Shown: positions 1,483 to 62,251 of the stretch, piece after piece | How the letters are laid out: every line of letters starts with the position of its first letter | Numbering within the stretch: the first letter of the stretch is position 1 | NCBI GenBank assembly: GCA_028693815.1 | Contig: JAQUUP010000004.1 | Coordinates: 29,683-93,682 of the forward strand | Source of the DNA: Candidatus Omnitrophota bacterium | Lineage (GTDB): Bacteria > Omnitrophota > Gorgyraeia > Zapsychrales > Aceulaceae | DNA length: 64,000 nucleotides | Reading direction: 5' to 3' | The notes under the pieces: model-generated | What the model saw: only the letters and a program-made list of their open reading frames with translations | Database searches by the model: none | Told to the model about the DNA's origin: nothing | Program-made: the position numbers and the translations under genes

Positions 1483-1500
1483 TAAATATTGGGAGGTTTG

Positions 1501-2136
1501 ATGGATTTACCCGCTAATACAATTGAAAGAATCACAAAAATATATGGATATCTTGACGCATTAGCAGAGAGAGAAGTGGATTTTGTTTCTTCGAAAGAAT
1601 TGGCTGAGGCTGTGGGCACAACGGATCATACAATTCGAAAAGATGTTAGCCTTTTAAAAATTACAGGTTACACCAGAAAAGGGTATTGTGTTCGATCTTT
1701 AAAGGGCGAGCTAGCTAAAAAGCTCGAGCTTGATAAAGAGCGAAAGGCCTGTATTGTTGGTTTAGGCAGGCTTGGAACAGCGCTCTTAGACTATGAAAAG
1801 GCTAAACAGGATGGATTTAAGATTGTGGCAGGATTTGATTGCAGCATTAATAAGCTTGAGAGGATTCGTGCTTCGATTGATGTATTTTCGATGAGTGAGC
1901 TTGAAAACATCATTAAAGGCCGCAATATCGATCTTGGCATTATTACAGTGCCCGCTAAAGCTGCTCAAGAGGTAGCTGATCAGTTGATTGCAGCTGGAAT
2001 AAAAGGAATTCTTAATTTTTCTCCAGCAAAGATTGTTGTGCCAAAGAATATTATTTATGTGGATATGGATTTTACAAATGCTTTGCGTTTTATGGCAGTA
2101 AAGTTTATTACTAAAAAGGAAGCCCCGCGCCCTTGA
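1501..2136 (+). CDS. rex: redox-sensing transcriptional repressor Rex
   Basis: A winged-helix N-terminus is followed by a Rossmann fold (GLGRLGTALLDY...GFKIVAGFD) typical of Rex. The ATG at 1501 follows GGGAGG. Confidence 0.85.
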   Translation: MDLPANTIERITKIYGYLDALAEREVDFVSSKELAEAVGTTDHTIRKDVSLLKITGYTRKGYCVRSLKGELAKKLELDKERKACIVGLGRLGTALLDYEKAKQDGFKIVAGFDCSINKLERIRASIDVFSMSELENIIKGRNIDLGIITVPAKAAQEVADQLIAAGIKGILNFSPAKIVVPKNIIYVDMDFTNALRFMAVKFITKKEAPRP

Positions 2137-2215
2137 GAATCAGGGCTGGGGTAAATTCGCACAAATAACTTAACGCTCCATCGTAGTCGCGTAAGTTATG
2201 TGCTCATTTAAGAAA
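2123..2215 (+). repeat. structured hairpin element copy C: GC hairpin, then TAAATTCG, long imperfect hairpin, CTCATTTAAG
   Basis: It shares conserved ends and CTTRACG...CGTAAG internal boxes with the copies at 29911-29998 and 35180-35272. The stems differ in sequence but stay complementary. It lies directly 5' of the serC RBS. Confidence 0.6.
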
Positions 2216-2228
2216 GTGGAGGATTGAA

Positions 2229-3311
2229 ATGGCAAGAGTATACAATTTTAGTGCAGGACCAGCAACGTTACCAGAGGAAGTTTTAAAGAAAGCCGCAAGC
2301 GAAATGCTTGATTACAATGGATGCGGTATGTCTGTTATGGAAATGTCGCATCGAGGAAAAGAGTTTCAGAAGATTTTCGATACTGCTGAAGCGACTTTGC
2401 GAGAAATTATGGCAATCCCTGAAAATTATAAAGTTTTGTTTTTGCAGGGTGGGGCGTCTATGCAATTTGCTGCTGTTCCGCTAAATTTAATGACTAAGAA
2501 TAAAAAAGCAGATTATGTTCACACTGGCCAATGGACGAAAAAAGCAATTGCTGAAGCTAAGAAATTAGGCACGGTTAACGTGGTAGCCAGCTCTGAGGAC
2601 AAGAATTTTTCTTATATTCCAGAGCTTGATTCTAAAACATTTTCGAAAGATGCAGATTATTTTTATATTGTGACTAACAATACTATTTATGGAACATGTT
2701 ATAAAAATATTCCTGAAACAGGTAATGTGCCGATTATTGCGGATATGTCGTCTAATATTTTGTCAGAACCAATTGATGTGAAGAAATTTGGTGTTATTTT
2801 TGCGGGTGCGCAAAAGAATATTGGTCCTGCAGGCCTGACTCTTGTAATTATTCGTGAGGATTTAATCGGTAATGCTGCAGAGAATATACCAACATTACTT
2901 GATTATAAGGTGCAGGCGGATAATGGTTCTATGGCCAATACGCCACCTTGTTATGCTATTTATATGGCAGGGTTAGTTTTTGATTGGATTAAAAAACAAG
3001 GTGGATTGATTACAATGAAGAAAATTAATGAGGAAAAAGCAGCAATTCTTTATGATTTTATTGACCAGTCAAAACTTTTTAGTTGTCCAGTAGAAAAGAC
3101 AAGCCGATCATTGATGAATGTTCCGTTTGTTACGGGAGATGATGAATTAGATACTAAATTTATCTCGGAGGCAACCAAAAGAGGGCTTAAGGCCCTTAAG
3201 GGGCATCGTAGTGTAGGCGGCATGCGTGCAAGTATTTATAACGCAATGCCGATTCAAGGTGTTAAGGCGTTAGCTGAGTTTATGAAGGAATTTGAAACGG
3301 CAAATAAATAA
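2229..3311 (+). CDS. serC: phosphoserine aminotransferase
   Basis: The N-terminus NFSAGPATLPEEVL...HRGKEF and overall length match SerC. GGAGG lies upstream of the start. Confidence 0.9.
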   Translation: MARVYNFSAGPATLPEEVLKKAASEMLDYNGCGMSVMEMSHRGKEFQKIFDTAEATLREIMAIPENYKVLFLQGGASMQFAAVPLNLMTKNKKADYVHTGQWTKKAIAEAKKLGTVNVVASSEDKNFSYIPELDSKTFSKDADYFYIVTNNTIYGTCYKNIPETGNVPIIADMSSNILSEPIDVKKFGVIFAGAQKNIGPAGLTLVIIREDLIGNAAENIPTLLDYKVQADNGSMANTPPCYAIYMAGLVFDWIKKQGGLITMKKINEEKAAILYDFIDQSKLFSCPVEKTSRSLMNVPFVTGDDELDTKFISEATKRGLKALKGHRSVGGMRASIYNAMPIQGVKALAEFMKEFETANK

Positions 3312-3345: not shown

Positions 3346-4521
3346 ATGTATAAAATAAAAACACTTAATAAGATTTCAGCAGAAGGATTAGCTGGTCTTC
3401 CTTTAGATCAATATGAAATCGGAACAGAGATTGCACAGCCAGATGCAATTATTCTTCGAAGTTTTAAAATGCATGATATGGAGCTTCCCGATTCTTTGTT
3501 GGCCGTAGGCCGCGCAGGAGCAGGAGTTAATAATATTCCAATTGAAAAATGTTCTGAAAAAGGAATTGTTGTTTTTAATACGCCAGGAGCGAATGCTAAC
3601 GCGGTTAAAGAGCTTGTTATTGTAGGCATGCTTTTAGCTTCTCGAGATATTGTTTCGGGCATTGTCTTTGCTCAGAGCTTGAAAGGAAAAGGAGGGCAGG
3701 TTCCTGCGTTAATCGAGGAAGGTAAAAAGAATTTTGCTGGGCAAGAAATTGCCGGCAAGACGTTAGGTGTTGTCGGTCTTGGTAAAATTGGCGTTATGGT
3801 CGCTAATGCAGCGCTTGATTTAGGCATGAATGTCATTGGATACGATCCTTTTATTTCGGTTGAATCTGCTTGGGGGTTATCAAGAGATGTTCAGAGGGCC
3901 GATGGGCTTGATGCGCTTATTGCGAATAGTGATTATATTTCTTTGCACACACCTTTAAGCAATGAAACTAAAGGCATGATTAGCGAAGAGAAATTTCTTC
4001 GAATGAAGAAAAATGTTCGTATTCTTAATTTTTCTCGCGGAGGTATTGTGAATAATGATGACTTAAAAACAGCGATTGAAAAAGGTATTGTTGCTCGTTA
4101 TGTGACAGATTTTCCAGATGACGAGCTTTTAAATATGGATAAAGTTATTGCGATTCCGCACCTTGGAGCATCAACGGCAGAGGCTGAGGGCAACTGTGCA
4201 ACGATGATCGTTAAGCAATTACGTGATTTTATTGAAACAGGAAAGATTAAGAATTCTGTGAATTTTCCAAATTGCAAGCTTGAGCAAGGCTCAGATTATC
4301 GGCTTGTGATTATGAATAAAAATATTCCTAATATGGTCGGACAGATTTCTTCGATTTTGGCTAAAGCTAATATTAACATTACTGAAATGTTGAACAAAAG
4401 CAAAGGTGATTATGCTTGTAATATTATTGACATTTCTGATGAGCCGAACGAAAAGCTTATCAAGTCGCTTTATGGTGTTCAGGGTGTTATCAAGGTTAGA
4501 GCGATTAATTTAAAGAAATAA
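3346..4521 (+). CDS. serA: D-3-phosphoglycerate dehydrogenase (short form with C-terminal ACT domain)
   Basis: A 2-hydroxyacid dehydrogenase NAD-binding core (GKTLGVVGLGKIG) is followed by an ACT-like tail. It is adjacent to serC. Confidence 0.85.
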   Translation: MYKIKTLNKISAEGLAGLPLDQYEIGTEIAQPDAIILRSFKMHDMELPDSLLAVGRAGAGVNNIPIEKCSEKGIVVFNTPGANANAVKELVIVGMLLASRDIVSGIVFAQSLKGKGGQVPALIEEGKKNFAGQEIAGKTLGVVGLGKIGVMVANAALDLGMNVIGYDPFISVESAWGLSRDVQRADGLDALIANSDYISLHTPLSNETKGMISEEKFLRMKKNVRILNFSRGGIVNNDDLKTAIEKGIVARYVTDFPDDELLNMDKVIAIPHLGASTAEAEGNCATMIVKQLRDFIETGKIKNSVNFPNCKLEQGSDYRLVIMNKNIPNMVGQISSILAKANINITEMLNKSKGDYACNIIDISDEPNEKLIKSLYGVQGVIKVRAINLKK

Positions 4522-13214: not shown

Positions 13215-13231
13215 TAATAAATGAAAGAAAG

Positions 13232-13269
13232 AAAAAGGGCTCTGCTTAAATAAGCAGAGCCCTTTTTTG
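13232..13269. terminator. bidirectional rho-independent terminator between convergent genes
   Basis: A 12-bp hairpin GGGCTCTGCTTA / TAAGCAGAGCCC with a 2-nt (AA) loop is flanked by AAAAAG on the 5' side and TTTTTTG on the 3' side. Confidence 0.8.
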
Positions 13270-13279
13270 TCTATCTTTT

Positions 13280-13747
13280 TTATTTAAAAGTTTTTAGTGT
13301 TTCCCATGTTTTTGAGCCGACAACACTATCAGGCGTAAGTCCATTGTCCTTTTGAAAATTTGAAATTGCATTGATTGTGTTTGGTCCAATTTTTCCATCA
13401 ACATTGCCTTCATAGTATCCGGCGTTTTTTAAAGCGATTTGAATCTCTGCAGGAGTTGCGTTAACGCGAATGATACCAAGCCCATCTTTAGATTCAAGAA
13501 CTTCTGGTGAAAGTTTTTTTGGTTCAGTCAGTTTAGTTAGCTGATTGTTTTTTTCTTCGATTTGCTTTGTGAGACCATTAATTTTATCGTAAAGACGAGA
13601 AATTTCTTGATCTTTTTTATTAATATTATTTTCTAAAAGATGAACACGATTAGTGAGTTCATCGGTTTGAGGCTGATATTTTTGTGTTGTCTGACAGCCA
13701 GCAAAGATAAGTCCTGAAGCCATAAGCAGAAGAAGTATTTTTTTCAT
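13280..13747 (-). CDS. lipoprotein with C-terminal peptidoglycan-binding (PG_binding_1) domain
   Basis: There is a lipobox (LIFAGCQ), a coiled-coil region and a GYYEGNVDGKIGPNTINAISNFQKDNGLTPDSVVGSKTW domain. Confidence 0.7.
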   Translation of the reverse strand: MKKILLLLMASGLIFAGCQTTQKYQPQTDELTNRVHLLENNINKKDQEISRLYDKINGLTKQIEEKNNQLTKLTEPKKLSPEVLESKDGLGIIRVNATPAEIQIALKNAGYYEGNVDGKIGPNTINAISNFQKDNGLTPDSVVGSKTWETLKTFK

Positions 13748-17938: not shown

Positions 17939-18060
17939 GCATAACAGAAGAAAGCGTTTTTTCTTTAGTTTCTGAAGGCCTTCTTTTTTCTTATTTTTAT
18001 GCTATATTTAATTTAGGTGGATTCGTTCTTTGTAGTTGTTGTTCGGTATTTTTTTTCTAG

Positions 18061-18096
18061 CCCCGCCAGGGGATGATTTCTCTGGCGGGGTTTTTA
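18061..18096 (+). terminator. rho-independent terminator
   Basis: The hairpin CCCCGCCAG-loop-CTGGCGGGG is followed by TTTTT. Confidence 0.75.
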
Positions 18097-18212
18097 GTTA
18101 AATCAAAGCTTGTAAATTAAGAATTCATGTTAAAAGAAGCGACATTTTCTGTTTTATTTCAATATTCTTGAAGTATAATAAGGATATTTTTAAATCCTTA
18201 AGAGAGTTAAAT

Positions 18213-29879: not shown

Positions 29880-29910
29880 ATAAAGTTTCAAAATTTAAAG
29901 TTTTAATATT

Positions 29911-29998
29911 CCGACACGTTGCACGTGTGGGATAAATTCGTGCGGCTGGCTTGACGTTGCCTTAAGGGCTTCCGTAAGCCAGGCATTCATTTAAGGAG
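29911..29998 (+). repeat. structured hairpin element copy A, directly abutting the rmuC RBS
   Basis: A short hairpin ACACGT-TGC-ACGTGT is followed by TAAATTCG, a long imperfect hairpin (GGCTGGCTTGACG...CGTAAGCCAGGC) and TCATTTAAGGAG. The AGGAG lies 7 nt before the ATG. Confidence 0.6.
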
Positions 29999-32722: not shown

Positions 32723-34219
32723 TTAAGAATTAGTCTTTTTTTGTTCTTCTTTGAGTTTCTTGATATTATCAATAAGATTTGATTTTTGTCTTAGCTGATC
32801 TAAGAAGTTTTTAAATGCCGTATTCTTTTTTTCTTCAAGCAATTGTGTTTTTAATTCTTCCTTCTTTTCTTCAAACGCATTTTCGTCAATCGGGACAAAT
32901 GCATTCAAGTAAACAATGCAATATCCAGTGCTTATTTCTGTTGGATCGCTGAGGCGATTTCCTGCGGTTAGTGCAAAAGCGGCTTTGTGAAAGTTTTGCG
33001 CAGTTCCAATACCAGGGAGGTATTGTCCTCGAGTAAAAGGGGCTGGTTTTTCAGCTTTTAGTTCAAGCTGTTTTGCCGCGACATCAAAAGTTTGATTAGA
33101 CTTATCTTCAAATGATTTTTTTATTTTCTCTAAAACATCTTCAGATTTCTTTTTTGCTAATTCTTTAGATTTGTCATACGCCAGAGCTTCTTTGACTTTG
33201 TCTTTTACTTGATCAAGCTCAGGAACATAGGGTTCTTTTTGTTCTTTAAGTTTTAAGACATAGAATCCTTTGGATGTTTTGATAGGGCCGGCAATCGATT
33301 CTGGTTTTATGCTCAGGGCCTCTTGAAAGATTTCTAGTGGCCAGCCGAGATTAAGATTTGGGTTTTCTTGACTAAAGAATCCGCTTTCCTGAACTTTAAG
33401 ATCATATTTCTTTGCTAAATCTAGAAAGTCGATATTGTCGCTGTTAAGATCTAGGGTAAGATTGTCAGCTTGACTCTCGATATTTATTTTTTGTTCATCT
33501 GTTGCATCCTTCGGGTATTCAAGCGCTAAATACTCAACATTGATCATAGGAGGAGTTTTAAAATTATTTTGATGTGCTTGATAATAAGAGGCAATTTCTT
33601 CATCTGTTGATTGAACATTCTTTTGATATTCCAAGAATGGAATTAGAACATAAGAAATATCGATTTTCTCATTTTGATTCTTGTAAGCTTCAAGCGCTTC
33701 CTCATCCGATACAGTCATAAGGTCTGTTTCTTGCTCGTAAATTTTTGTAAATACAAGAGAGCCTCGAATTCCTTCTTCAAAATCACGAGGGCTACATTTA
33801 AAGACATATTGAACAATTTGATTGTATAGAGCTGGATCAAATTTTCCATCTCTTTTAAAAAATCCGAGATTAGCAATAGTTTTGATTACTTCATTGTTCG
33901 CGATTTTAATTTTTCGTTTTTTTCCTTCGCGCAGAAGAATAAGTCTATCCCAAGCCTCAGATTCTAGATCAAGGAAATTTTTGATCTTAAAGAAATTTTC
34001 TCCATAACGCATAATGGCTTGATTTTGGACATGCATTAAAGCATCTTGAAAGTCTTCCATTGAGATCTTTTTTCCAGAAATCTCTCCTGCGTATCGAATA
34101 GAATTTGGCTGCATCAAAGAGGAAGAAATACCAAAGAAAACAAAGGACACCGTGATCATGACGGCCATAATCCATAAAAGTTTCTTGGCGACACCTTTTT
34201 TACGTAGAATTTTTAACAT
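32723..34219 (-). CDS. ppiD: periplasmic chaperone/peptidyl-prolyl isomerase PpiD-like
   Basis: An N-terminal anchor, a SurA-like N domain and a parvulin-like region (KTSKGFYVLKLKE) are present. Confidence 0.75.
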   Translation of the reverse strand: MLKILRKKGVAKKLLWIMAVMITVSFVFFGISSSLMQPNSIRYAGEISGKKISMEDFQDALMHVQNQAIMRYGENFFKIKNFLDLESEAWDRLILLREGKKRKIKIANNEVIKTIANLGFFKRDGKFDPALYNQIVQYVFKCSPRDFEEGIRGSLVFTKIYEQETDLMTVSDEEALEAYKNQNEKIDISYVLIPFLEYQKNVQSTDEEIASYYQAHQNNFKTPPMINVEYLALEYPKDATDEQKINIESQADNLTLDLNSDNIDFLDLAKKYDLKVQESGFFSQENPNLNLGWPLEIFQEALSIKPESIAGPIKTSKGFYVLKLKEQKEPYVPELDQVKDKVKEALAYDKSKELAKKKSEDVLEKIKKSFEDKSNQTFDVAAKQLELKAEKPAPFTRGQYLPGIGTAQNFHKAAFALTAGNRLSDPTEISTGYCIVYLNAFVPIDENAFEEKKEELKTQLLEEKKNTAFKNFLDQLRQKSNLIDNIKKLKEEQKKTNS

Positions 34220-34460
34220 AAATAACTCCGATTGTTTATTTTGTTCCTGTGAATCGCGCGATTTAGCGTAATAAGGCAGGATTTTTTAATTAATTTTCTT
34301 AAAATTATACAAAATTTTTAATAAGAATCAGTATAGCTTTAGGTAGTGCGTTTGGCAAGGGGTTTTCCGCTAAAAATGAGGCTATTAGCACGCCTGGGCG
34401 GTTCCTGGCAAAAGGTCTAAAATATGCTATACTTTAAAAAATTTCTACTTATATAAAGAT

Positions 34461-37400
34461 ATGAATAAAAATATATTAAAGAATAGACCTTTTTTAAGGG
34501 CGATTTCCCTATTTGTTATTTTGGCTTTTGGGGAGAGCGTGCTTATTCCTCAATATGTTCCTAAGGTTTTGGCGCAGAGTGCTTTAGGAGTTCCTTCTTC
34601 AGGTGCAGTTATTCATTTAAGTCAGCCATTTACGCCTGTTATTTTTAGGGGTTTAAAGGTTTTCCCAAAAGATCCCCTAAGATTTGATTTTATTGTTGAT
34701 CGTGCTGATTCTAAGCTTGAAAAGGAAGAATTTAAGTCTGAAACCGAAAAATTAATTCGTTACTTTTTGGCATCTTTGACAATTCCTGAAAAAGACCTTT
34801 GGGTTAATCTTTCTCCGTATGAGCAAGACCGCATTATTCCACGAAGTCTTGGAAAAACAGAGATGGGAAAAGATATGCTAGCTCAAGATTATTTGCTAAA
34901 GCAAATCACAGCTTCTTTGATTCACCCAGAGGGTGACACAGGCAAGAAGTTTTGGCAACGAGTTTATAGTCGGGCTTATCAAGAATATGGCACAACTGAA
35001 ATTCCTGTGGACACGTTTAACAAGGTTTGGATTATGCCTCAAAAGGCTGTTGTTTATGAATTTGGAGATCGGGCTTTTGTGCTTGAGAGCAAGCTAAAGG
35101 TAATGCTGGAAACAGACTATTTGGCAATGCAAGAAGATAGAAGGGAGAGGATGGAAGATAGAGGAGGTGTTCCGATTTTGACTGCTGGGTCGCAGTCAAA
35201 ACGGAATAAATTCGCGCAGGCTGACTTGACGTCGACTCAAAGTCTCCGTAAGTCAGGCGCTCATTTAAAAAGCAAGTTAGCCTCTGACATTATCCGCGAT
35301 ATTGTTATTCCCGAATTAGAAAGCGAAGTCAATTTTGGTGAGAATTTTGCGCAATTGCGCCAAATCTATCATTCCATGATTTTGGCAGCATGGTTTAAAA
35401 AGAAACTTAAAGGATCGATCCTCAATCAAGTTTATGCGGATCAGAACAAAATTAAAGGCGTTGATTTAGTTGAAGAGAATGTTTCGCAAGAAATTTATGA
35501 TCAATATTTACAAGCATTTAAAAAAGGTGTTTGTGATTTTATTAAAGTCGAACATGATCCATATACGAATAAGAATATTCCAAGAAAATATTTTTCCGGC
35601 GGTATCGAATGGGTGGCATCAAGTAATATTGAATATGTTACAAATATTTCGAGTCAGCCGCCTGTTTGGGTGTCGAGCTCAAGCCTTGAAGGTGTTGATT
35701 TGAATCTCAAGCCGGTTTTCGATGCTCCTGATCAAGAAGCAGGATCTAATATCGTAGATCTAATTTCGGCTTTAAGCTTAGCTGGATATCCTCAAAAAAA
35801 GAATCAACAAAGAAATATTGTTTTGATTGGTTCAATAGATAGTCTTGAAAGCGCAATCTTTCTTTCAAATAAGTTTCCAAAATCAATTATTTATGTTGTT
35901 GAGGAAGATGAACAGTTTTTTGAAGAGCTTAAAAAGCAGCTTAAAGAAGTTGATGACGATCAAAATACGACAGGCATTCAGTTGATCCATGCGCATCCTT
36001 CAGATGTTTCGGATTCTTTGGCTAACGAAATGATTGATTTGGTTTTGATGGACAGTCATGTTGATTATTATGGATACATACAAAATGAACTTCCTGATAT
36101 TTTAAAAGAAATTAAACGTATCCTAAAACCAAAGGGCATTTTTTGTGCTGATTCTATTTCTTATTTTAAAGAAGCAAAACAAGATCTTGAAGTTCTAGGG
36201 TTTTTTTATTCGCAGCCATCTGAAAAAAAATATAAGGATTGGATTTTGGTTGCTGAGAAAAAGATTTCTTCATCTGTCACCGATTCCGCGCAGTCTGTTA
36301 TCTCGGATCTTAAAAAGGACTTGGGTCAAGGACCGTGGGTTTTTTATGCGTTTGGCGAAGTTCCTCATATTTATTGGGATGATAATTTGGATATTGAATT
36401 TTTTAAGAAAAAACAACAAGATTTTCTTAGATCCGCAACGCAATTGTCAAAATCAATTCCTTTTGAATTTGATCTAATACAGAGAGGAAGACTAGATTCT
36501 TTTACTATTGAGCTTCTTAAGAATGCCTATGATGCCCTTTTAGCTGTTTGGGACAAGGAGCTGCCTCAAAAGAATATTGCTTTGAAAAACTATATTCCAC
36601 AAGTAATGTTTGATATGAGTATTGATGATGACTCTTTGATTATTTCGGTTTACGATAATGGAATCGGTGACACAGCAAGTCGAGAGATTTTTACAAAACA
36701 TAAGAATCAAAAAGCTAACGAAGGGAAACGTTATTGTTATCTTGGCGGCGGTGGCTGGGGATTAATAAAGGTGCAGTATATCAAAAGTCTTTATAAAGGG
36801 GATTTTTCCTTAACGCTTGGAAACCGATCTAGCCGTTTTACACATGCAAAGATTACTATTCCTTTATCTAAGCTTGTTATCAAAAACAATGAAAAATTAG
36901 ATAAGCTAAGCTCCTTTTTTATAAAATCTGACTCTGCGCAAGCGAAAGGCAACAAGATTTCTTCGCCTACAACCGACCCCGCGCAGGTGGTCTCAAGCGG
37001 AATCCTTTTACCGGTTGACATCGAAAAAGAAAAACAGGGTTTTATTTCAGATTGGAATAAGTATTATCAGGATGGACTTGGCGCTGAAAAAATGAAGCTG
37101 ATGGTGGAAAAATCTAAAGGGGTCATGTCGATTTATGATTTTATAAAGATATGGATGGTAAAAAGCAAAAAGACGCTCGGAGGATATTCCTTGGGTATCA
37201 ATGAAGAATCTTATTTTGGATTTTGCGATTTGGCTGGACTCACAAATCATTATGAAGGCTATAAAGAGATGGAAATAACGTTTTTTGGGAATCCAGATCA
37301 CAGGTATATCCAAAAAATTTCAGCCACAGGAAAACCAATCGTTTTCTTTATTCCTAAAAACATTTTTACCTATTCAGACAATTATGCACAGCATACAAAA

Positions 37401-40400
37401 ACCGAAATGAGATATTTGCTTGAAAATTTTTCTTATTTAGAAAACGTTTATTTCGTCTTTGGAGCTTATGAGATTATTCCCCAAGAATATGAAGAAGAAT
37501 GGATGGAGAAATGTCCAATCCGGCTTAGCGGAAGAGAATGGTATGCAAAGCTTATCGAGAAGGTTTTTTCTGATGTGAACGACGTACGACGAACATCGAG
37601 CGACGCCCGCCTGCCGGCGAGGCAGGATTCACGCTTCACGATCGGCGAAGCTGCCGCCGACCTGCCTGACCGGCAGGCAGGCTCCGCGCAGGCGGGGGGA
37701 AAGTCCGCAGCCAATAACGAAAGTAAGTCAATCATCTCATCATCGATAGGGGTCAGGATGACTCAAGAAAAATTTAGTCATGAGCTGGGAAGACCTTTAA
37801 GTGAAGGTGAGTGGGCTCTTGTTGATGCGCTTTGGAGAATTGTGCCCTCTTCTAATGAGCAAAATCAATCTCTTTCTATCTGGAAGAGGGTGCGCAATCA
37901 GAAAATCTTTTCTAAAAAAGCATCAAGACCACGTTCTGCAGATGAGGATATTTTAGATATTTTTAGAAAGATGGATTTGGTGTTTAGAGGCGATGCTAAG
38001 CAAAAAAAGGATTTTATTTATCAAATGGAAAATTATGTTCATTTGTATTTAGAGAAAGAAAAGAATTTTGAAGGTTTGGAGCCTTTTGAGTTGCTAAAAA
38101 CGGTGTTAGCTCAAGCTAATCAGTCTCGGCCTTTGGATCGGACATTGATCGTGTTGAGCGATGTAATCGACAGAGGATTAATTAAGTCTGAAGAAACTAT
38201 CGTTGGAATTGCTGAGAAATTTCATTCTGATCCATCTCAATGGAAAGATATTCCTGATCAAAGCTCAAAAAAGAAGTCTATAATCGGGAGAAAACCGGTG
38301 GTTTTGTTGGTTGATGATAATCCAGGCCAGATCAGAGAGCTTAAGGTTTCTTTGGAGAATGCGGGATATGATGTTGACTTTGCCATGGCACCTGAAACAG
38401 GATTGAAGAAAATTGAGGAATCAATCCCTGATCTTATTGTCACCGATTGGGAAATGGCGCCTTTCATGGATGGCATAACATTTATTAAGAGACTTAAAAA
38501 ATCTTATCCAGATATTCCGGTTGTCTTTAGGTCAGGTGACGTTGGAGATGGTGATGACAGCCGTAGCATGCGAGGGAGTTTTATTTTAGCTGCGTTTGAT
38601 AATGTTGTTGCTGTTTCTGGGAAGTTTCGCGAAGAAGATGTCGCATTTCAAAAGATTCAAGAATTCGTCAAAACCTCCAGCCCGATGGGTGATCAGGTAT
38701 CGATAGATCTTGATATGGAAAAACCGCAAAAAGGATCTGTTTACGTAGGAAACGATGAAGTTTTTCCTAAAGCGGTGAGAGAATTTTTAGGAGACAGAAG
38801 AGTTTTGGTTATGGAAAATATATGCGATCAAGAGGTGGATGCGCAAACTCTTTCTTTGGCTCCTAAAAAGATAGACAATCCTGTTGCGCTTAGAGTGATT
38901 GTTGTAAGGTCAGCAGATAATCTGGAGGATAAAAAGCCTCTTTGCAATGTCTTTGTTTTGGATGCCTCAGATAAAGATGCTCCTATGTTGGCGTATTCAA
39001 GCATGAAGATGAACACGGAAGAAGGCTATTATATGCAGACATGGTCGAAAAGGACAGCTCCTTTTAGTATTCCAAGACAAGCTTTTATTCAACGGTCAAT
39101 AGTTTTATTGTTAGCTAAGGGAGGCATAAAGGAGCATAGATCTGATACTGAGGGAGGCTTGCAAAATGATCGATCTAACGATAGATATCTTAATATGAAG
39201 AACGATTCTCGCCTTGAGGTCATTGCTGATAAGGGCTATATTGTTAGATATATTGGTGCTTCGAGTGGTTTGATGGGGGATGGAAATGCTGAAGACAGTG
39301 ATCAGGATTTGCATATAACGGAGGCGCTTCGAAAAAAAATATCAGAAAGTGGCATGGTTAAGGCGTTTTCGGAAACCGAATTTTTTGAGGATCAAAGGAT
39401 TAAGAATGAAGATGATTTAATTGAGGCCCTTAATAAACATTCTCAAGGAGTATTTGATATTAGAGAGTTTAAGCAAAGAGAGTTTTTAGAAGACGTTTAT
39501 GCGTTTGGACCACGCGGAGAAAGACATAACAAAGTAGTTGAGGAATTAGGATTTATCCACTATATGACATCTTTAGAGCCATATAATTTTGTTTTTTCTC
39601 ATTTAATTAAGAAATTAATTCAGGAAAAATCTAAAATTGTTTTTTTTGTTGGCAGAAATCTTGATCAGCAACATTTCACGAAGCTTACAACTGAAGAGTT
39701 GAGATTGCTTTTTGATAAAGAGGGATCCATAGAAAATGTTTATTTTGTTTTTGGTCTTTATGATCCTTTGCCTAATGTTGAGAATGCGTATCAAATAAAA
39801 GAAGATTCTCATGATGATGTAACAGTCGAAATAGAAAAAGGGAGCGAGGACAGGGATCATCGGGTAGTGAAGAAACGCAGAGCCTTTCCCAAAACAGTTG
39901 CCAATGAAAAAGCTGTTAAGAAAATTGAAGAATTTTTAAAAACTGAAAAAGGATTTATCCAATATGTTCTTGATTTTGTGGAGAAAGAAAATGGTCTTAC
40001 TTACTGGTTCTCCGATGGTTTTATCGCCTATCTTAAGAAAAGATTAGAAAAAGAATTTTCAATAAACATAACAACGCGAATGCTTGTCGATTTGTTTGGG
40101 CTTAATTCGGGTCTCTATAGCCTAGGGTTAAATGATAAGAATTTGAAAACAGGAGGAATTAGGGATAGCACCCGAGATGTTTTGATGAGTGATTTTATGA
40201 GCCATCAAGGGCCAGAGGCAGAAAAATCAAAACGATATTTTATTGAATTATGTTCAAATAAATATGTTCAAAAAATGTTTAAAAATCTTGAGCCAGGAGC
40301 GGTATCGATTAGGGATGGTGTTACGCTTTTTGATTATTTGCTTAAACGTCTAAAAGAAAGTTTTTCAGGCTACGTTATCGATTTTATCAATTCAGGTGGA

Positions 40401-43400
40401 AATTCTTTTTGGGATTTAAAAGGTTCACAAGGACTTTATGCCTATTCAAAGAAAAGGCTTGAGCAACACTTAGGTGGAGAGATAACAAATCTCATGTATT
40501 CTAATTTGCTAGGTTTTTCTTTTCCTAGTTCAGAAAAAAGGCGCCTTACAGGTGTTATATATAGTAAAACAAGAGATTTGATAGTTGCAAGATTTAGGCT
40601 TGAAGGAGAAGCGAGAAAAGGCATAGATAAAATTTATGAAAATCAAACAAGAAATATCGATGAGGAAAAGCTGCGCACAATAAGATTAAAATCAAAAGCT
40701 GAGAATTATATTCGGGGAGGGGCGTTTGAGAAGTATGTAGTTGATTATATTAAGAAATATGGATCAGGAGTTTTTGCAGATACTAAGGGGAAAGAAGGTT
40801 TTTATTTTTATGCTAAAGAAAGAGTAGAGCTTGATCTCAACGCCAAGATAGATGATTTGCTTTTTAATCGTATTTTAGGGGTTAAATTTAATTTATCAAA
40901 GAAAAAGAGATTTCATACAAGATCTATGCTGATGAACCTTAAAAAGATCGATCTGATATGCAATAAATTTAATATCGACAAAAAAATTAAGAAATATTTA
41001 AAAGGTATATGTTTTCAGAGTAGAGAGGGGAAAAAAGCTATTCTTAATGACTTTTATGTCCCATATTTTAAAGAAAAGCTTGAAGAATATTTAAAGCGAG
41101 GGGATCAGAATATTGTAAGCCTTTTTGGGAAAGATGGATTTTTTTACTATCTTTTTACTAGGGGATCTTTTTTATTGGAAGCGCACGCGCAATTTCTTGG
41201 TGTTGAAGAGGATGTTTTGGCTAATTTAATGGAAGGAAACATCGAAGGGTCCATTCTCGATGAATTAAAATCGATTCCGATTACCATAGGTCTCAGCGCT
41301 AAATTGAAAAATATATTTTTGAATCTTTTAGAAGAAGAAAAGGAAAACAAAAAGTTTTCTGGCATAACTAATTTAAAGGAGTTCGCTTTTGGTCCCAAAA
41401 GGCAGGTTTTAGAATCGGTAGCTTCTAGCGTTGTTACGCTTAGAGACGGCAGCACGATTCCTGAGAGCGTGTATCGAAATGTGCGTGATGCTCTTGGCTT
41501 GCCAGACAACAGAAATCCTGAAAAGAAGTATTTTACAATTTTTCAGGGTGGCAGCAGTGATGAGGCAATAAGGATTTTGAGCCTAATTGCTTCTAAAGAA
41601 AATTTTAATAAAAATGATTTTTTAAATTTAGCGATGGGTGGCAACCGGGATTTGTTTAAAGATATTTTGCGTTATTTAGCAGAAAAAAATTTGGTTGTTT
41701 TTAGTGGAAAGTTTGAAGACAATATAAAATTTGATCGAGATAGCAGCTTGTCTATGGATAGCACAGTTGCGCTCTTGATTCGCGCAAGCATTGATACGAG
41801 CGGAGACCCTTTCAGAGGAACTACATATTTTGCTTTTCAAGATCCGCTTTCGCAGGATAGTAGTAAGATTTCTTCTCCCACCATTGACCTCGCGCAGGCC
41901 ATGACGGCAGGGGAAAAAACGAGTTCATCAGGTATCAAGCTTATCGATTCGAAATCGGTCAAGCAAGCCATTGAAGAGGCGAGTCCGTTCGATATTCAGG
42001 TTAATGGTCAAAAGATCCCCATTTATTTGTATTGTAATTTTTCTGATGATCTTAGGGCATACAAAAAGAATGTTGTTTCGTTGATGATCCAAGCGATGCC
42101 TTTTGGCAGGAATGTCCGTTCTCAAGAATACAGAGAGGGGATTGAGGGTCACCCGGCGCTTTCGAACCTTTTGAATATTTCATCTGATCTTGGAGAGCTT
42201 GAGAGAGGTGGGTTTTTTGGTTTACTAACTGCGTCCCTTGAGCAAAGATCTGATGGAAGCGTGGTTTTGTATTTTGAAGAGAATCAGTTTTCGAGCAATT
42301 TTAAGCGCATTAAGCCGGGTAGTGCGCGCAAAGCATATGAGGAGTGGGTTCCTCGAGCTCATAAACATCTCATTGATGTTTTAAAGAAAAATTTTAATGT
42401 GGTAGATGTATATGCGCTTTCCAAAGACGTTATCCATGAACATTATAAGAATGACCGCATTAGTAAGGCGCGGCTGAAAGGTGTATTTAAAAAAGACGCG
42501 GATGCGATCTGGAATGATCTTGTCGACCATCAATGGATTTTTTCATATTCTGTTGACGGATATGACATCGCGCGCGTTAATCCTGTGCCGCCTCAAGGCC
42601 GTGAAAGATTGGCCGGAGATTGGGATATGGAGAGATTAGATCGCTTTTTAAGTACTCCTCAATCGAAGGTGAGCGGAGAGAATTTAAGAGAAGCTTATAG
42701 CCTCCCTTATAATAGACCAGAGTGGCGACGCGTGACCATGCCTCTTCCTGAGGCTTTACGTTTCCAATGGGGAAACTCATTTTGGGGAAACACCGCAATA
42801 GTTGGCGATGTTGAACTTTATCATTATGAGCCGATGGGGGATGAGGCGCAAGGCAACAAGATTTCTTCGCCCACCTCCATTGACCCCGCGCAGGGAGGGA
42901 AAACTTCCTCTCCAACATTAGCTGAAATGCTTGTAGCATCGGAAGGGATTCCAAAATTTTTAATGGAAACGGCAAAAAGCGTTCTTTTTGAGAATGACGA
43001 GAAAATTAAGGAATTTTTAGGTATAGAGCAGATTAGAAGTGTTCGGTGTCGACCTTATTTTTTACATACACCATTGAGCCTTTTAGTTTTTACATTTGAG
43101 ACTGAAAAAGGACAAAGATCAATTTATGTTAAGCGTAAATGCTCTGACTTTGAACAAGAGCTTACTCTTGACGCTTCTCGGGAAGAGGTCTTTCCTCCAA
43201 GTATGATTTTAAATGAGTCCGATGGCAGAAAGGCACTGTTTATTCGAGGAATAGATGATGGGGCTTCTTTGGAAAAAGTTAAAAAAGACCCCGATTGGAA
43301 GAAGTTCTTTTTGAACAATGAAGAACATTTCGTTAAAAAAATAGGAAATCAATACGGAAAATTAAATAAAAAGGCAGATGTTATGCATCACGATGTTCTT

Positions 43401-45158
43401 CTAAGGCATATATTTATTACAAAAAATAAAAAGGTATTCTTAATTGATTTAACAACAGAAGATGATGATGGAAATCCGATGTCGTCTAGATGGAGGGGCA
43501 TGCTCCACTATCTAGGCGAGGATCTTTATAAGGTAAAAGGAAAAATTTTTAGTTTTGTCCGCGATCTTTATTCGAGCGACTTGGTTTCTGGAAAAATGTT
43601 ATTTAATGATTTTAAAAAGAAAGAAAATTTTTATCAACAGTGGGTTCAAGGAGGATATGACGAAATACCTGAAGAGGTTAATAGGCCCAGTAAAGAAAAG
43701 AATCCCTATTTTCCGGGGAAAGAAGAAATTGCCTCCAGCCCCGCTCAGGTAGGAGAGAGAGTTATTTCTCTGGATGATTATAGTAAGGGTGATTCAGATA
43801 TTCAAGGAAAAGCAGGTCAGTCGGCTGTCTATTTTTCCGAAGACGGGAAACATGTTTTAAAGATATTTAACAAAGATTTGGTTAAAAAGTATGTAAGTGA
43901 TGGCGAAATTTCCGATGCACATGTAGTTATTATGGCTAAAATTATATTGAATCTCTCTGAAGAAATGAAAAGAAAGTTCATGGACTCAAAAATAAAAATT
44001 GTAGTTCCTGAGCTTGTAAGAATCAAAAATGGTCCTTTGGCCCTTTTGTCAAAAAGAATAAAAGGGGGAGAGCCGTCTTTCTTAGATCGAGGAGCAGTTA
44101 AGAAGATAAGTGAATTTCGCGAACGGATTTCCGGCCTTCTTGCGTTTCCTATTCAGGACAGAAGAGAATTAGATTACACAAATTTTTTAATTGATGAGCT
44201 CACAGGGCAAATTTATTGTATTGATTTGATTGACATGATTAGCTTGTTCTACATTCTTGATCAGATCGAAGAGAAACCTTTTGACGACCTGGATCGGATT
44301 AGTAAAAGATTTATAAAAGATGATTTTGATAAAAAATCCATCTCCTTACCCATCGGCAAAGCCATCTCCGACCCCGCGCAGGCAGGGGATGGTGATCGTA
44401 GTCAAACGCTTGTGCAACGCTTTACAGGTAATTCTGTCATGGCAACTATTTCACAACGTAATAATGATGTGATCCAATTTATTAAGAATTTTCTTGAAAG
44501 CGATTCTATTTTTATAAAGGAAGCCATTAACCAAGGTGAGAATTTCTCAGATGAAGAAGTTAATAGTAGATGGAAGAAGATTTTAGAAGATTTTAGCAAA
44601 GATTTAGGCCCAAATCAGATTGTTGATAATTTAAAAGATTTTTTAAACATAGAAACGATAGGAAATTATGATATTCATCAAATGATATCTCATCAGATAA
44701 CGATTGCGCTAGGGGCCCTTGAGACTTTAACGGCCATTAAAAAGAAAAAGCCTGAAAAATGGACGGATCAAGAATATAACGCCGCGGTAGCCGAATGGGA
44801 GACAAGGGTAAAAGATTACGGCTTCCAAGCTTATATTACTTTGCGCGCTATTGAACTTGCTGCAAGAGAGGAAAAAATATCCTCTGTTTTCATAAACCAA
44901 ACAACCGGCGGTATTGATTTTGATCGAGACAATTGGGAGCTGGAGACTAGAGGCGAAGGAATTGAATTTGAGATTCCAGCGGAGCTTCAAGGGGTTAATT
45001 TTGATGAAATTCAAGGTTTTGTGCCTGTTATCATTAATATTGTGCCAATCACAAATATTTTGCTGATTCTCGGATTAAGTGAAAAAGATATTAAGAATCT
45101 TAAGTGGGCACAAGAGTTGCAAGTTGCAGATAAGCCTAGGGAATTAAGTCTGCTTTAG
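34461..45158 (+). CDS. giant 3565-aa multidomain protein: N-terminal signal/anchor, CCoAOMT-like SAM-methyltransferase core, GHKL ATPase, CheY-like receiver, duplicated unknown module, two atypical kinase-like cores
   Basis: A single open frame of 10,698 nt. Motif-level domain assignments are given in the findings. A promoter-like TGGCAA-17-TATACT lies upstream. Confidence 0.8.
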   Translation: MNKNILKNRPFLRAISLFVILAFGESVLIPQYVPKVLAQSALGVPSSGAVIHLSQPFTPVIFRGLKVFPKDPLRFDFIVDRADSKLEKEEFKSETEKLIRYFLASLTIPEKDLWVNLSPYEQDRIIPRSLGKTEMGKDMLAQDYLLKQITASLIHPEGDTGKKFWQRVYSRAYQEYGTTEIPVDTFNKVWIMPQKAVVYEFGDRAFVLESKLKVMLETDYLAMQEDRRERMEDRGGVPILTAGSQSKRNKFAQADLTSTQSLRKSGAHLKSKLASDIIRDIVIPELESEVNFGENFAQLRQIYHSMILAAWFKKKLKGSILNQVYADQNKIKGVDLVEENVSQEIYDQYLQAFKKGVCDFIKVEHDPYTNKNIPRKYFSGGIEWVASSNIEYVTNISSQPPVWVSSSSLEGVDLNLKPVFDAPDQEAGSNIVDLISALSLAGYPQKKNQQRNIVLIGSIDSLESAIFLSNKFPKSIIYVVEEDEQFFEELKKQLKEVDDDQNTTGIQLIHAHPSDVSDSLANEMIDLVLMDSHVDYYGYIQNELPDILKEIKRILKPKGIFCADSISYFKEAKQDLEVLGFFYSQPSEKKYKDWILVAEKKISSSVTDSAQSVISDLKKDLGQGPWVFYAFGEVPHIYWDDNLDIEFFKKKQQDFLRSATQLSKSIPFEFDLIQRGRLDSFTIELLKNAYDALLAVWDKELPQKNIALKNYIPQVMFDMSIDDDSLIISVYDNGIGDTASREIFTKHKNQKANEGKRYCYLGGGGWGLIKVQYIKSLYKGDFSLTLGNRSSRFTHAKITIPLSKLVIKNNEKLDKLSSFFIKSDSAQAKGNKISSPTTDPAQVVSSGILLPVDIEKEKQGFISDWNKYYQDGLGAEKMKLMVEKSKGVMSIYDFIKIWMVKSKKTLGGYSLGINEESYFGFCDLAGLTNHYEGYKEMEITFFGNPDHRYIQKISATGKPIVFFIPKNIFTYSDNYAQHTKTEMRYLLENFSYLENVYFVFGAYEIIPQEYEEEWMEKCPIRLSGREWYAKLIEKVFSDVNDVRRTSSDARLPARQDSRFTIGEAAADLPDRQAGSAQAGGKSAANNESKSIISSSIGVRMTQEKFSHELGRPLSEGEWALVDALWRIVPSSNEQNQSLSIWKRVRNQKIFSKKASRPRSADEDILDIFRKMDLVFRGDAKQKKDFIYQMENYVHLYLEKEKNFEGLEPFELLKTVLAQANQSRPLDRTLIVLSDVIDRGLIKSEETIVGIAEKFHSDPSQWKDIPDQSSKKKSIIGRKPVVLLVDDNPGQIRELKVSLENAGYDVDFAMAPETGLKKIEESIPDLIVTDWEMAPFMDGITFIKRLKKSYPDIPVVFRSGDVGDGDDSRSMRGSFILAAFDNVVAVSGKFREEDVAFQKIQEFVKTSSPMGDQVSIDLDMEKPQKGSVYVGNDEVFPKAVREFLGDRRVLVMENICDQEVDAQTLSLAPKKIDNPVALRVIVVRSADNLEDKKPLCNVFVLDASDKDAPMLAYSSMKMNTEEGYYMQTWSKRTAPFSIPRQAFIQRSIVLLLAKGGIKEHRSDTEGGLQNDRSNDRYLNMKNDSRLEVIADKGYIVRYIGASSGLMGDGNAEDSDQDLHITEALRKKISESGMVKAFSETEFFEDQRIKNEDDLIEALNKHSQGVFDIREFKQREFLEDVYAFGPRGERHNKVVEELGFIHYMTSLEPYNFVFSHLIKKLIQEKSKIVFFVGRNLDQQHFTKLTTEELRLLFDKEGSIENVYFVFGLYDPLPNVENAYQIKEDSHDDVTVEIEKGSEDRDHRVVKKRRAFPKTVANEKAVKKIEEFLKTEKGFIQYVLDFVEKENGLTYWFSDGFIAYLKKRLEKEFSINITTRMLVDLFGLNSGLYSLGLNDKNLKTGGIRDSTRDVLMSDFMSHQGPEAEKSKRYFIELCSNKYVQKMFKNLEPGAVSIRDGVTLFDYLLKRLKESFSGYVIDFINSGGNSFWDLKGSQGLYAYSKKRLEQHLGGEITNLMYSNLLGFSFPSSEKRRLTGVIYSKTRDLIVARFRLEGEARKGIDKIYENQTRNIDEEKLRTIRLKSKAENYIRGGAFEKYVVDYIKKYGSGVFADTKGKEGFYFYAKERVELDLNAKIDDLLFNRILGVKFNLSKKKRFHTRSMLMNLKKIDLICNKFNIDKKIKKYLKGICFQSREGKKAILNDFYVPYFKEKLEEYLKRGDQNIVSLFGKDGFFYYLFTRGSFLLEAHAQFLGVEEDVLANLMEGNIEGSILDELKSIPITIGLSAKLKNIFLNLLEEEKENKKFSGITNLKEFAFGPKRQVLESVASSVVTLRDGSTIPESVYRNVRDALGLPDNRNPEKKYFTIFQGGSSDEAIRILSLIASKENFNKNDFLNLAMGGNRDLFKDILRYLAEKNLVVFSGKFEDNIKFDRDSSLSMDSTVALLIRASIDTSGDPFRGTTYFAFQDPLSQDSSKISSPTIDLAQAMTAGEKTSSSGIKLIDSKSVKQAIEEASPFDIQVNGQKIPIYLYCNFSDDLRAYKKNVVSLMIQAMPFGRNVRSQEYREGIEGHPALSNLLNISSDLGELERGGFFGLLTASLEQRSDGSVVLYFEENQFSSNFKRIKPGSARKAYEEWVPRAHKHLIDVLKKNFNVVDVYALSKDVIHEHYKNDRISKARLKGVFKKDADAIWNDLVDHQWIFSYSVDGYDIARVNPVPPQGRERLAGDWDMERLDRFLSTPQSKVSGENLREAYSLPYNRPEWRRVTMPLPEALRFQWGNSFWGNTAIVGDVELYHYEPMGDEAQGNKISSPTSIDPAQGGKTSSPTLAEMLVASEGIPKFLMETAKSVLFENDEKIKEFLGIEQIRSVRCRPYFLHTPLSLLVFTFETEKGQRSIYVKRKCSDFEQELTLDASREEVFPPSMILNESDGRKALFIRGIDDGASLEKVKKDPDWKKFFLNNEEHFVKKIGNQYGKLNKKADVMHHDVLLRHIFITKNKKVFLIDLTTEDDDGNPMSSRWRGMLHYLGEDLYKVKGKIFSFVRDLYSSDLVSGKMLFNDFKKKENFYQQWVQGGYDEIPEEVNRPSKEKNPYFPGKEEIASSPAQVGERVISLDDYSKGDSDIQGKAGQSAVYFSEDGKHVLKIFNKDLVKKYVSDGEISDAHVVIMAKIILNLSEEMKRKFMDSKIKIVVPELVRIKNGPLALLSKRIKGGEPSFLDRGAVKKISEFRERISGLLAFPIQDRRELDYTNFLIDELTGQIYCIDLIDMISLFYILDQIEEKPFDDLDRISKRFIKDDFDKKSISLPIGKAISDPAQAGDGDRSQTLVQRFTGNSVMATISQRNNDVIQFIKNFLESDSIFIKEAINQGENFSDEEVNSRWKKILEDFSKDLGPNQIVDNLKDFLNIETIGNYDIHQMISHQITIALGALETLTAIKKKKPEKWTDQEYNAAVAEWETRVKDYGFQAYITLRAIELAAREEKISSVFINQTTGGIDFDRDNWELETRGEGIEFEIPAELQGVNFDEIQGFVPVIINIVPITNILLILGLSEKDIKNLKWAQELQVADKPRELSLL
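35180..35272 (+). repeat. structured hairpin element copy B, located in-frame inside the giant ORF
   Basis: The hairpin GACTGC-TGGGTC-GCAGTC is followed by TAAATTCG, a long hairpin (GCAGGCTGACTTGACG...CGTAAGTCAGGCGC) and TCATTTAAAAAG. It is translated as ...KRNKFAQADLTSTQSLRKSGAHLKSK... Confidence 0.6.
37570..37720 (+). repeat. GC-rich (about 70% GC) island with two perfect GC hairpins, in-frame inside the giant ORF
   Basis: The hairpins are CCTGCC-GGCGA-GGCAGG and CCTGCCTG-ACCGG-CAGGCAGG, embedded in an otherwise ~35% GC gene. The island encodes ...SSDARLPARQDSRFTIGEAAADLPDRQAGSAQAGG... Confidence 0.7.
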
Positions 45159-62178: not shown

Positions 62179-62208
62179 AAATTTTTAGGAATATTGAAGT
62201 TTTGTTTT

Positions 62209-62235
62209 GGGCCACTTTCGCTGCGAAAGTGGCCC
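62209..62235. other. perfect 12-bp GC-rich stem-loop after lpxI (possible terminator, lacks a 3' U-tract)
   Basis: The hairpin is GGGCCACTTTCG-CTG-CGAAAGTGGCCC. The T-rich run is on the 5' side only. Confidence 0.5.
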
Positions 62236-62251
62236 AAACTATGAAATTTTA

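Follow-up and report, generated by a model that had tools for sequence, protein, structure and literature searches.

Why should a structured RNA element of a kind that lies ahead of genes be found within an uninterrupted coding sequence? The question is posed by a giant open reading frame (ORF) in DNA from a Candidatus Omnitrophota bacterium. The window analyzed here is the whole stretch of 64,000 nucleotides (nt) comprising positions 29,683 to 93,682 of contig JAQUUP010000004.1, and coordinates are counted from its first letter unless another locus is named. The translation of the giant ORF includes ...SQSKRNKFAQADLTSTQSLRKSGAHLKSKLAS..., the peptide cited in an initial annotation made from the letters alone. 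That annotation took the segment to be an in-frame copy of a hairpin element that occurs in 5' untranslated regions elsewhere, and drew an analogy with the Rickettsia palindromic elements (RPE). We confirm that a two-hairpin element lies within the ORF at 35169-35261 on the forward strand, i.e. 93 nt or 31 codons, and that the ORF is intact. Our preferred reading, to which we assign a probability of about 0.7, is that this is a tolerated, RPE-like in-frame insertion of a new hairpin repeat whose usual place is between cistrons.

Anatomy of the element and its relatives in the window

The host gene and the element have the following parts.

34461..45158, forward strand: giant ORF hosting the element, 3565 amino acids, uninterrupted
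35169..35261, forward strand: inserted element core, encoding residues V237-A267, VPILTAGSQSKRNKFAQADLTSTQSLRKSGA; delimited by comparison of linker length with locus L043 (below), by the open frame and by predicted local distance difference test (pLDDT) scores
35169..35207, forward strand: hairpin P1, 17 base pairs with the loop UGGGUC; the variable module of the repeat family
35207..35214, forward strand: single-stranded linker TAAATTCG between P1 and P2
35214..35260, forward strand: hairpin P2, with invariant core CUUGACG/CCGUAAG, a bulged A and a pyrimidine internal loop; its outer and apical stems covary
35261..35272, forward strand: tail TCATTTAAAAAG, the counterpart of the TCATTTAAGGAG(G) found ahead of start codons in intergenic copies
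35201-35262: match of the in-ORF copy to covariance model R1, 84.2 bits
Example of a predicted tryptic peptide from read-through of the element: FAQADLTSTQSLR

The element is calculated to fold with a free energy of -44 kcal/mol over 101 nt (z = -6.2), a stability equalled by none of 200 shuffled sequences. Just one of the three sense frames through the 93 nt is free of stop codons, and that is the frame used. The interval originally proposed for the element, 35180-35272, has the correct end, but its start falls 11 nt inside P1, the true start being 35169. The Shine-Dalgarno (SD) part of the tail is degenerate, with AAAAAG instead of AAGGAG, and there is no start codon 3' of it.

The covariance model R1 was built from 36 copies of the element, and the window was scanned with filters off. 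It contains exactly three copies, with no further match of E < 1. The copy in the giant ORF matches over the full length of the model with E = 3e-21, including the P2 core and the linker UAAAUUCG, and its P1 columns align with the P1 of the other copies. Typical members of the family are intergenic, lie on the same strand as their neighbors and have the tail TCATTTAAGGAGG before a start codon. The copy studied here is within an ORF and its tail leads to no start codon, and it is therefore an atypically placed member of the family. Repeats can produce chimeric joins in metagenome assemblies, and ordinary coding sequence might resemble a leader element by chance, but we consider either form of artefact to be vanishingly improbable. 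The two flanks belong to one conserved domain and are consecutive within it, the same arrangement is present in five independent records, and a score of 84.2 bits with the E value given above is not that of a chance likeness.

The initial annotation was also right that the same element occupies 5' leaders. The two further copies in the window are these.

29909..29998, forward strand: intergenic copy in the 5' leader of an RmuC-family gene; R1 70.0 bits at 29927-29988
2122..2222, forward strand: intergenic copy in the 5' leader of ORF 2229..3311; R1 42.0 bits at 2146-2205

In the RmuC leader, P1 (29909-29932) is followed by TAAATTC, P2 (29940-29986) and then TCATTTAAGGAG, with the ATG of the gene at 30004, 16 nt past the R1 match. 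This copy first surfaced as a look-alike at 29931-29990 in a scan of the window for stable local folds, and when aligned with the in-ORF copy it has the same architecture, with compensatory changes in P2. In the other leader, P1 (2122-2151) overlaps the TGA stop codon (2134-2136) of ORF 1489..2136, and P2 (2159-2203) runs into the tail TCATTTAAGAAAGTGGAGG, with the ATG at 2229 lying 24 nt past the R1 match. The window has a G+C content of 36%. The pattern TTGACG-N-CCGTAAG occurs twice in it, where 0.02 occurrences would be expected, which indicates that the copies are not there by chance. Rfam 15 has no family for these copies, as judged by searching the whole window at the gathering threshold and the first two copies at E up to 10. 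The sole gathering-level match in the window is a tRNA, and the weak matches over two of the copies, to eukaryotic long noncoding RNA models and leuA-Halobacteria, are at noise level.

The host domain and the site of insertion

The giant protein comprises a conserved N-terminal domain of ~400 amino acids (the N-domain), a response-regulator receiver domain and a methyltransferase-like stretch. More than 1400 Omnitrophota proteins begin with the N-domain, and they differ widely in their C-terminal parts. The middles of these proteins are unrelated, and include kinase, NUDIX, HAD, ankyrin, HEAT and mannanase sequences; several of the proteins share a C-terminal GGIDxxP...PVIINIxP...FLGI with the giant protein (window 44950-45158). 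We found no Pfam family for the N-domain (window 34461-35700), and a fold search with its predicted model against the PDB gave no match at E <=0.001.

In an alignment of 24 homologues the element falls within a linker that is variable in both length and sequence, between LKVMLEEDYLAL and IVREIxIPEIEKEVNEGKNF, and the peptide encoded by the element is present in none of the 24. Searching 5.8e9 protein clusters with the translated element gave no protein having three 5-residue words in common with it; the proteins of the window and of L011 (see below) are themselves missing from that collection.

The closest homologue, P0012, is encoded on contig L043 (ENA ERZ27316756 k141_186742). Upstream of P0012 this contig and the window share their genes (CutA1, AhpC-like, SurA-like on minus strand), with 67% nucleotide identity over 2.4 kb. 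The P0012 gene has the N-domain, which is the only part that it shares with the window ORF, with no similarity past it, and the contig contains no copy of the element. It had been suggested that relatives be compared for the presence of the segment, and for a difference in length divisible by three. Codon alignment gives a linker of 20 codons in L043 and of 51 in the window; the difference of 31 codons is 93 nt, a multiple of three. The extra codons are GTT CCG ... GGC GCT, at 35169-35261, which is exactly P1, linker and P2. Given a relative that lacks the element and has a linker shorter by 31 codons, and the use of the sole open frame, the analogy with in-frame palindromic insertion in Rickettsia was a fair one. 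Beside its empty site L043 has GAT GCA TTT TTA AAA TCC (GCATTTTTAAAATCC), resembling the usual 3' tail of the element, so that the tail in the window may in part be original target sequence. The L043 gene also has an in-frame TAA within the conserved N-domain (~3383-3388, ...WFKDRLK*SILSQIY...), for which gene callers give products of 287 and 5096 amino acids. It may reflect an error of sequencing, decay into a pseudogene or recoding of the stop.

In an AlphaFold2 model of residues 1-450, pLDDT is <50 at 236-269, between confident helices at 217-233 and 267-292, and the inserted residues 237-267 fall within that segment. Other paralogues have accumulated different sequences here. The linker of the paralogue in L049, between EEDYVAMS and VIKEILIPE, contains 195 nt of GC-rich hairpins (-69 kcal/mol) that are translated in-frame. 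In L048 two linkers of one N-domain gene each contain, in-frame, a copy of a 123-nt direct repeat (81% identical), at 3112-3234 and 3427-3549, 315 nt apart; the repeat contains the hairpin CCGCCTCTGGCGG. The site is thus a permissive loop that collects hairpin-rich inserts. In-frame palindromic insertion is best known from Rickettsia; here it is seen in an uncultured phylum unrelated to Rickettsia, where the empty site is defined and the disorder of the linker offers a structural explanation. In-frame insertion of repeats may therefore be a more general route to new peptide segments.

A modular repeat between Omnitrophota genes

We searched one genome per species with the pattern CTTGACG-N8-22-CCGTAAG-N6-12-TCATTTAA. 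Of the 42 loci obtained we take ~40 to be real, and nearly all have Omnitrophota or Omnitrophica in their titles. Some genomes contain many copies, and more than 10 element loci came from a single genome. L002 and L039 are titled 'uncultured Planctomycetia bacterium' and have full-scoring copies, of 74 and 81 bits. Either the family extends past Omnitrophota or these bins are mislabelled.

The copies have a common layout. An AT-rich left box (TAAATAATAATGA), often with the upstream stop codon, is followed by the variable hairpin P1, the linker (C/A)UAAAUUCG, the hairpin P2 and the tail CUCAUUUAAGGAGG. A start codon lies a few bases past the SD sequence in the tail, such that the end of the cassette, UCAUUUAAGGAGG, is 5-9 nt ahead of the start codon of the downstream gene. 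About half of the copies terminate in TCATTTAAGGAGG-N-ATG, and roughly half adjoin the GGAGG-N-ATG of mutually unrelated housekeeping genes. The linker TAAATTCG is invariant in 34 aligned copies, though the search pattern did not require it.

The hairpins have strong support from covariation. In an alignment of 36 sequences, 95.7% of the cells of P2 are paired, and 10 of its 17 pairs exhibit compensatory change. Not one of 500 shuffles reaches the observed pairing or covariation score, and slid controls pair to the extent of 21-41%. Taking P1 and P2 together, both-sided change is found in 20 of 30 pairs, a count reached by one shuffle in 500. We considered a K-turn and a hammerhead core for P2. 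Both were rejected, P2 having neither tandem GA pairs nor CUGAUGA...GAAA.

Scanning ~308 kb of family loci with R1 gave 56 copies. Genomic context was counted for a set that also numbers 56, made up of the copies in the family loci and the three in the window, less three weak matches. Fifty-four of the 56 scored copies are intergenic. The upstream ORF is co-oriented with the element in 47 of 54 cases (p = 2e-8) and the downstream ORF in 42 of 49 (p = 4e-7). Copies within ORFs are rare (6 of 62 records), and all are at one site in one protein domain family. Reading the translations of the genes lying directly downstream identifies tpiA in two genomes, rplI (L9), rpmE (L31), rpmF (L32), amt, ahcY (S-adenosylhomocysteine hydrolase) and a dehydrogenase E2 subunit; S16, ATP synthase subunits and shikimate dehydrogenase are somewhat more distant neighbors. 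Conserved structure with covariation is a property that the family has in common with riboswitches, but the genes that it precedes are unrelated rather than a coherent set, and near-identical tandem arrays are present.

Those arrays contain two or three units with a period of ~100 nt. L006 (6660-6990) and L036 (6180-6520) each have three near-identical units, placed after a stop codon and ahead of the SD sequence of the next gene, which in L006 encodes an ammonium transporter. Orthologous intergenic sites differ in several ways. P1 is swapped between L016 and L038 with P2 identical, there is one unit in L001 and two in L025, and in L004 and L020 the element is 100% identical over ~120 nt, compared with ~88% for the coding flanks. 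L024, L026, L028 and L007 have another small hairpin module, CCCCGCCAAAAnnCGGCGGGATAAAT, in place of P1 or next to it, sometimes twice consecutively. Every hairpin module ends in (G/C)UAAAU.

The repeat family is a strand-specific, modular, intercistronic hairpin repeat. Its strand bias and covariation suggest that it functions as part of the transcript, and its changes of copy number and swapping of modules show the dynamics of a repeat. The initial annotation had opposed a small mobile element to a purely regulatory RNA; this is a false choice for a family that is strand-specific, intercistronic and covarying, and that usually adjoins an SD sequence. We infer that in its normal context the family acts at the level of RNA. 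It is likely to serve as a stable hairpin insulator or stabiliser by the ribosome-binding site, with its AU-rich single strands as possible nuclease sites. A search of the literature on Omnitrophota or Omnitrophica palindromic repeats, giant genes and RNA motifs found no description of the element, and the family seems to be previously undescribed. It adds a set of RNAs with clear covariation, absent from Rfam, beside the ribosome-binding sites of many Omnitrophota housekeeping genes. With that location it probably has a bearing on gene expression, operon processing and annotation, and R1 can be used to mask or annotate its members.

How does it compare with known repeats? Nearly half of the first-described copies of RPE lie within the ORFs of many unrelated genes. 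Frequent insertion of that kind is not found for the Omnitrophota family, where the in-ORF copies are confined to one linker of one domain family. What is shared is the outcome, since RPE are short (~100-150 nt) multicopy palindromic repeats able to sit in-frame in genes, where they contribute a peptide segment without destroying the protein (PMC10969869; general knowledge), and the 93 nt (31 codons) inserted in the giant ORF leave it intact. The Omnitrophota family differs from RPE in being strand-specific, intercistronic and linked to ribosome-binding sites, and in belonging to a different phylum.

The REP and BIME repeats of enterobacteria and pseudomonads are transcribed in mRNAs and affect mRNA stability. 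They are extragenic hairpin repeats, often within operons, and form mosaics of hairpin modules and linker motifs. The Omnitrophota modules are similarly swapped and repeated, each being followed by (G/C)UAAAU. However, REP sequences are found in either orientation and are associated with RAYT (Y1) transposases, whereas the family described here has a strong strand bias with no RAYT near any copy, and its unit is longer (~100 nt) with two hairpins. The transcripts of Correia and ERIC elements are cut by RNase III or RNase E. Together with NEMIS and BOX these elements resemble the Omnitrophota repeat in size (~100-150 nt), in forming long hairpins in transcripts and in lying near gene starts. 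Intragenic copies of ERIC and BOX yielding in-frame peptides have been reported (PMC10969869). In ERIC, Correia and BOX the terminal inverted repeats form one long hairpin, with TA duplications in Correia, whereas the Omnitrophota element has two hairpins with an invariant single-stranded linker, no duplications that we could see, and a 3' SD sequence. Lastly, the MIRU sequences are mycobacterial intercistronic tandem repeats of 40-100 nt, with a copy number that varies between strains. As in our family the ends of the unit relate to the upstream stop codon and the start of the downstream gene, but MIRU are not defined by covarying conserved hairpins and are not reported as a two-hairpin unit.

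Origin and conservation of the in-frame copy

The preferred reading may be put as a series of steps. A cassette that would normally lie between co-oriented genes, comprising the stop-codon left box, P1, the linker UAAAUUCG, P2 and a ribosome-binding-site tail, would have entered coding sequence in one lineage of the large N-domain protein family. It would have landed in a hypervariable, disordered linker, with a stop-free frame and a number of nucleotides divisible by three. The ribosome would then read through the cassette, and the protein would gain 31 residues in a loop tolerated by the fold. Later changes would have been in-frame modular indels only, giving 93 nt in the window and 144 nt in Aceula-like genomes. 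Within this account, the sequence comparisons establish membership of the family, the two-hairpin structure, the exact insertion in-frame, the permissive character of the site and the lack of the element in a syntenic relative. The peptide itself is probably a neutral passenger.

The Aceula-like genomes provide the comparison. In L011 (Candidatus Aceula lacicola) the element lies in-frame at the same site of an N-domain gene. When metagenomes were scanned for the P1 stem of the in-ORF copy there were four matches, each of them in an ORF at this site; the L011 allele accounts for three, the fourth (L044) being a diverged allele. The scan found this P1 stem variant in no intergenic copy. The same-site elements of L011 and L044-L047 amount to two alleles, one of them present in four records. 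The genes are not full orthologues of the window ORF, having no similarity to it past the N-domain, and the three N-domains compared are roughly equidistant outside the linker (72.5%, 70.2% and 69.0% amino acid identity). The Aceula-type insert is 144 nt in length, the extra 51 nt (17 codons) being located between GGAATAA and GGGATAA, two forms of the motif GGRATAA. This extra stretch with its P2 resembles the RmuC-leader copy of the window (78.6% over 117 nt). As the additional sequence lies between repeated linker motifs, the window and Aceula versions would be related by an in-frame modular indel.

A number of observations weigh against the preferred reading. Over the element, the window and L047 (which has the L011 allele) are identical at 97 of 100 positions, compared with 66% in the flanks (P = 2e-14). 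For the window and L011 all 34 third codon positions are identical, compared with 48% in the flanks (P = 2e-11). A vertically inherited, purely neutral passenger should have decayed. The in-ORF copies score 84.2 and 82.9 bits with R1, against 25-70 bits for the intergenic copies in the same loci. In addition, with an 'empty' relative whose identity near the site is only ~70%, the insertion cannot be delimited exactly. Nor has a mechanism of insertion been identified, no target-site duplications, clear terminal inverted repeats or transposase having been found in the window and loci analyzed. The identity of the element so far above that of its flanks does indicate that it is not ordinary coding DNA; the initial annotation would have been undone by synonymous variation of the usual kind, and that is not what we observe.

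The search for a mechanism covered several features. No direct repeat flanks 35169-35261 or the copies in L044 and L047, although the empty site is too diverged for this to be decisive. In many intergenic copies the left box (...AATGA) could pair with the right tail (TCATT...) over no more than 5 nt, and this complementarity is missing from the in-ORF copy of the window. No transposase was seen adjoining any copy. L048 carries on its contig (1-577) a gene for a Y1_Tnp (IS200/RAYT-type) transposase, the sole Y1_Tnp seen, at a locus unrelated to the element, and tblastn with this protein found no relative in the window or in loci L001-L049. The case for mobility made in the initial annotation is weakened accordingly by the lack of terminal duplications and of a transposase, and by the restriction of in-ORF copies to a single site.

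Could the element instead serve as an internal promoter or translation start, giving a shorter product of the giant gene? The intergenic tails lead straight into an SD sequence and start codon, and there is a GGAGG at 35163-35167, the sole SD-like motif close to the element, 10 nt ahead of an in-frame TTG at 35178. However, that TTG is buried in the 17-pair stem of P1, and GGAGG is replaced by AAGGAT in both L044 and L047. With a tail that reads AAAAAG rather than AAGGAG, no SD-like motif with a start codon is found 3' of it, and such a product would split a domain that is always contiguous in the homologues. Scans of 34200-36200 for sigma-70-like promoters and intrinsic terminators found none within the element, and no such promoter beside it. 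TTGACG in P2 was considered as a -35 box and dropped, the best -10 candidate at the right spacing matching 2 of 6 positions. An internal start site, which the initial annotation had offered among its alternatives, is very improbable, as is an internal promoter.

The excess conservation might mean that the in-ORF copy is a working RNA module selected within the coding sequence, where the nucleotides matter and the peptide is incidental. It might be recognized by the same factor or nuclease as the intercistronic copies, or might cause the ribosome to pause after synthesis of the signal peptide and the first half of the N-domain. The near-identity of the element and its third codon positions is in accord with this, and the window and L047 copies retain every pair of P1 and P2 and are at the top of the family scores. 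Three-way site patterns give one private change in the window and two in L047, with most in L044, and the window has two states in common with L044, a pattern that speaks against very recent copying from L047. The complete identity of the L004 and L020 intergenic copies within more divergent flanks has the same character, and since intergenic copies also exceed the conservation of their flanks, constraint at the nucleotide level looks like a property of the family. But the L044 allele does not conform. L044 and L047 are 93% identical over the element (137/148), which is under the 95% of their flanks. In L044 three changes break pairs and one is compensatory, and one codon of the tail is deleted. 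The rate seen between the window and L047 predicts 0.7 changes between L044 and L047, and there are 11 (P = 2e-10), of which ~8 alter the peptide. On this comparison of alleles the peptide is not conserved. Moreover, L043 and all other aligned homologues manage without the element, and its sequence names no function. We regard selection of the RNA at this site as possible but doubtful. If it were true, this would be a functional structured RNA embedded in, and translated with, a coding sequence.

The same data may be viewed in terms of lateral spread. The element, or a patch containing it, would have moved between N-domain paralogues or genomes, by insertion with a site preference or by conversion of a short tract, and then drifted neutrally. 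High identity is confined exactly to the element, and no 100-nt segment of either flank is above 78%. Recombination among these genes does happen, since the N-domains of L044 and L047 form a mosaic (83-100% identity per 100 nt) and the regions downstream of them are unrelated. Module swapping and change of copy number occur at orthologous sites. The N-domain tree is star-like, with the window slightly closer to L043, which lacks the element (72.5%), than to L011 (70.2%). Yet the metagenome scan found no donor with the same P1 stem outside ORFs, and the other copies in Aceula-like loci are very divergent (25-35 bits). The two states shared by the window are with L044 and not L047, and conversion of ~100 nt between flanks that are 66% identical has no obvious mechanism. 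Spread of this kind is also an unlikely explanation, if one of some weight.

Two accounts fit the pattern of changes, namely nucleotide constraint in the window and L047 that was relaxed in L044, or spread near the time of the L044/L047 split followed by drift; the comparison between them rests on three alleles. The discordance between the divergence of the element and that of its flanks is a testable case of RNA-level selection in a coding region or of lateral spread specific to an element. A broader proposal, which we put forward tentatively and think improbable as it stands, would make the family a phylum-wide intercistronic RNA cassette, with a stop-codon box, a protective hairpin, the invariant UAAAUUCG, a P2 recognized by protein and a ready ribosome-binding site, the in-ORF copy being kept by selection on its nucleotides. 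Returning to the tolerated in-frame insertion that we prefer, the most useful outcomes are the repeat family itself and the unexplained excess conservation of the in-ORF copy.

Other repeats and hairpins were noted in the window. Within the giant ORF, positions 37591-37700 on the forward strand have 67-77% G+C and several hairpins (~-65 kcal/mol over 140 nt), and are translated as ...DARLPARQDSRFTIGEAAADLPDRQAGSAQAGG...; the hairpin CCTGCCTGACCGGCAGGCAGG located there has near-identical relatives in L014 (929) and L039 (5637). It is possible that a further hairpin repeat, of another kind, has entered the giant gene in-frame at this place. A coding motif AAGATTTCTTC...GACCCCGCGCAGG, translated as (K/N)KISSPxxDPAQ, has five occurrences along the giant protein, and could be an inter-module linker or processing motif. 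They are as follows.

36258-36293: (K/N)KISSPxxDPAQ motif
36951-36986: (K/N)KISSPxxDPAQ motif
41862-41897: (K/N)KISSPxxDPAQ motif
near 42858: (K/N)KISSPxxDPAQ motif
near 44346: (K/N)KISSPxxDPAQ motif

Very stable GC-rich hairpins followed by T runs lie between ORFs at 13221-13280, 18051-18110 and 62191-62250, and look like ordinary intrinsic terminators.

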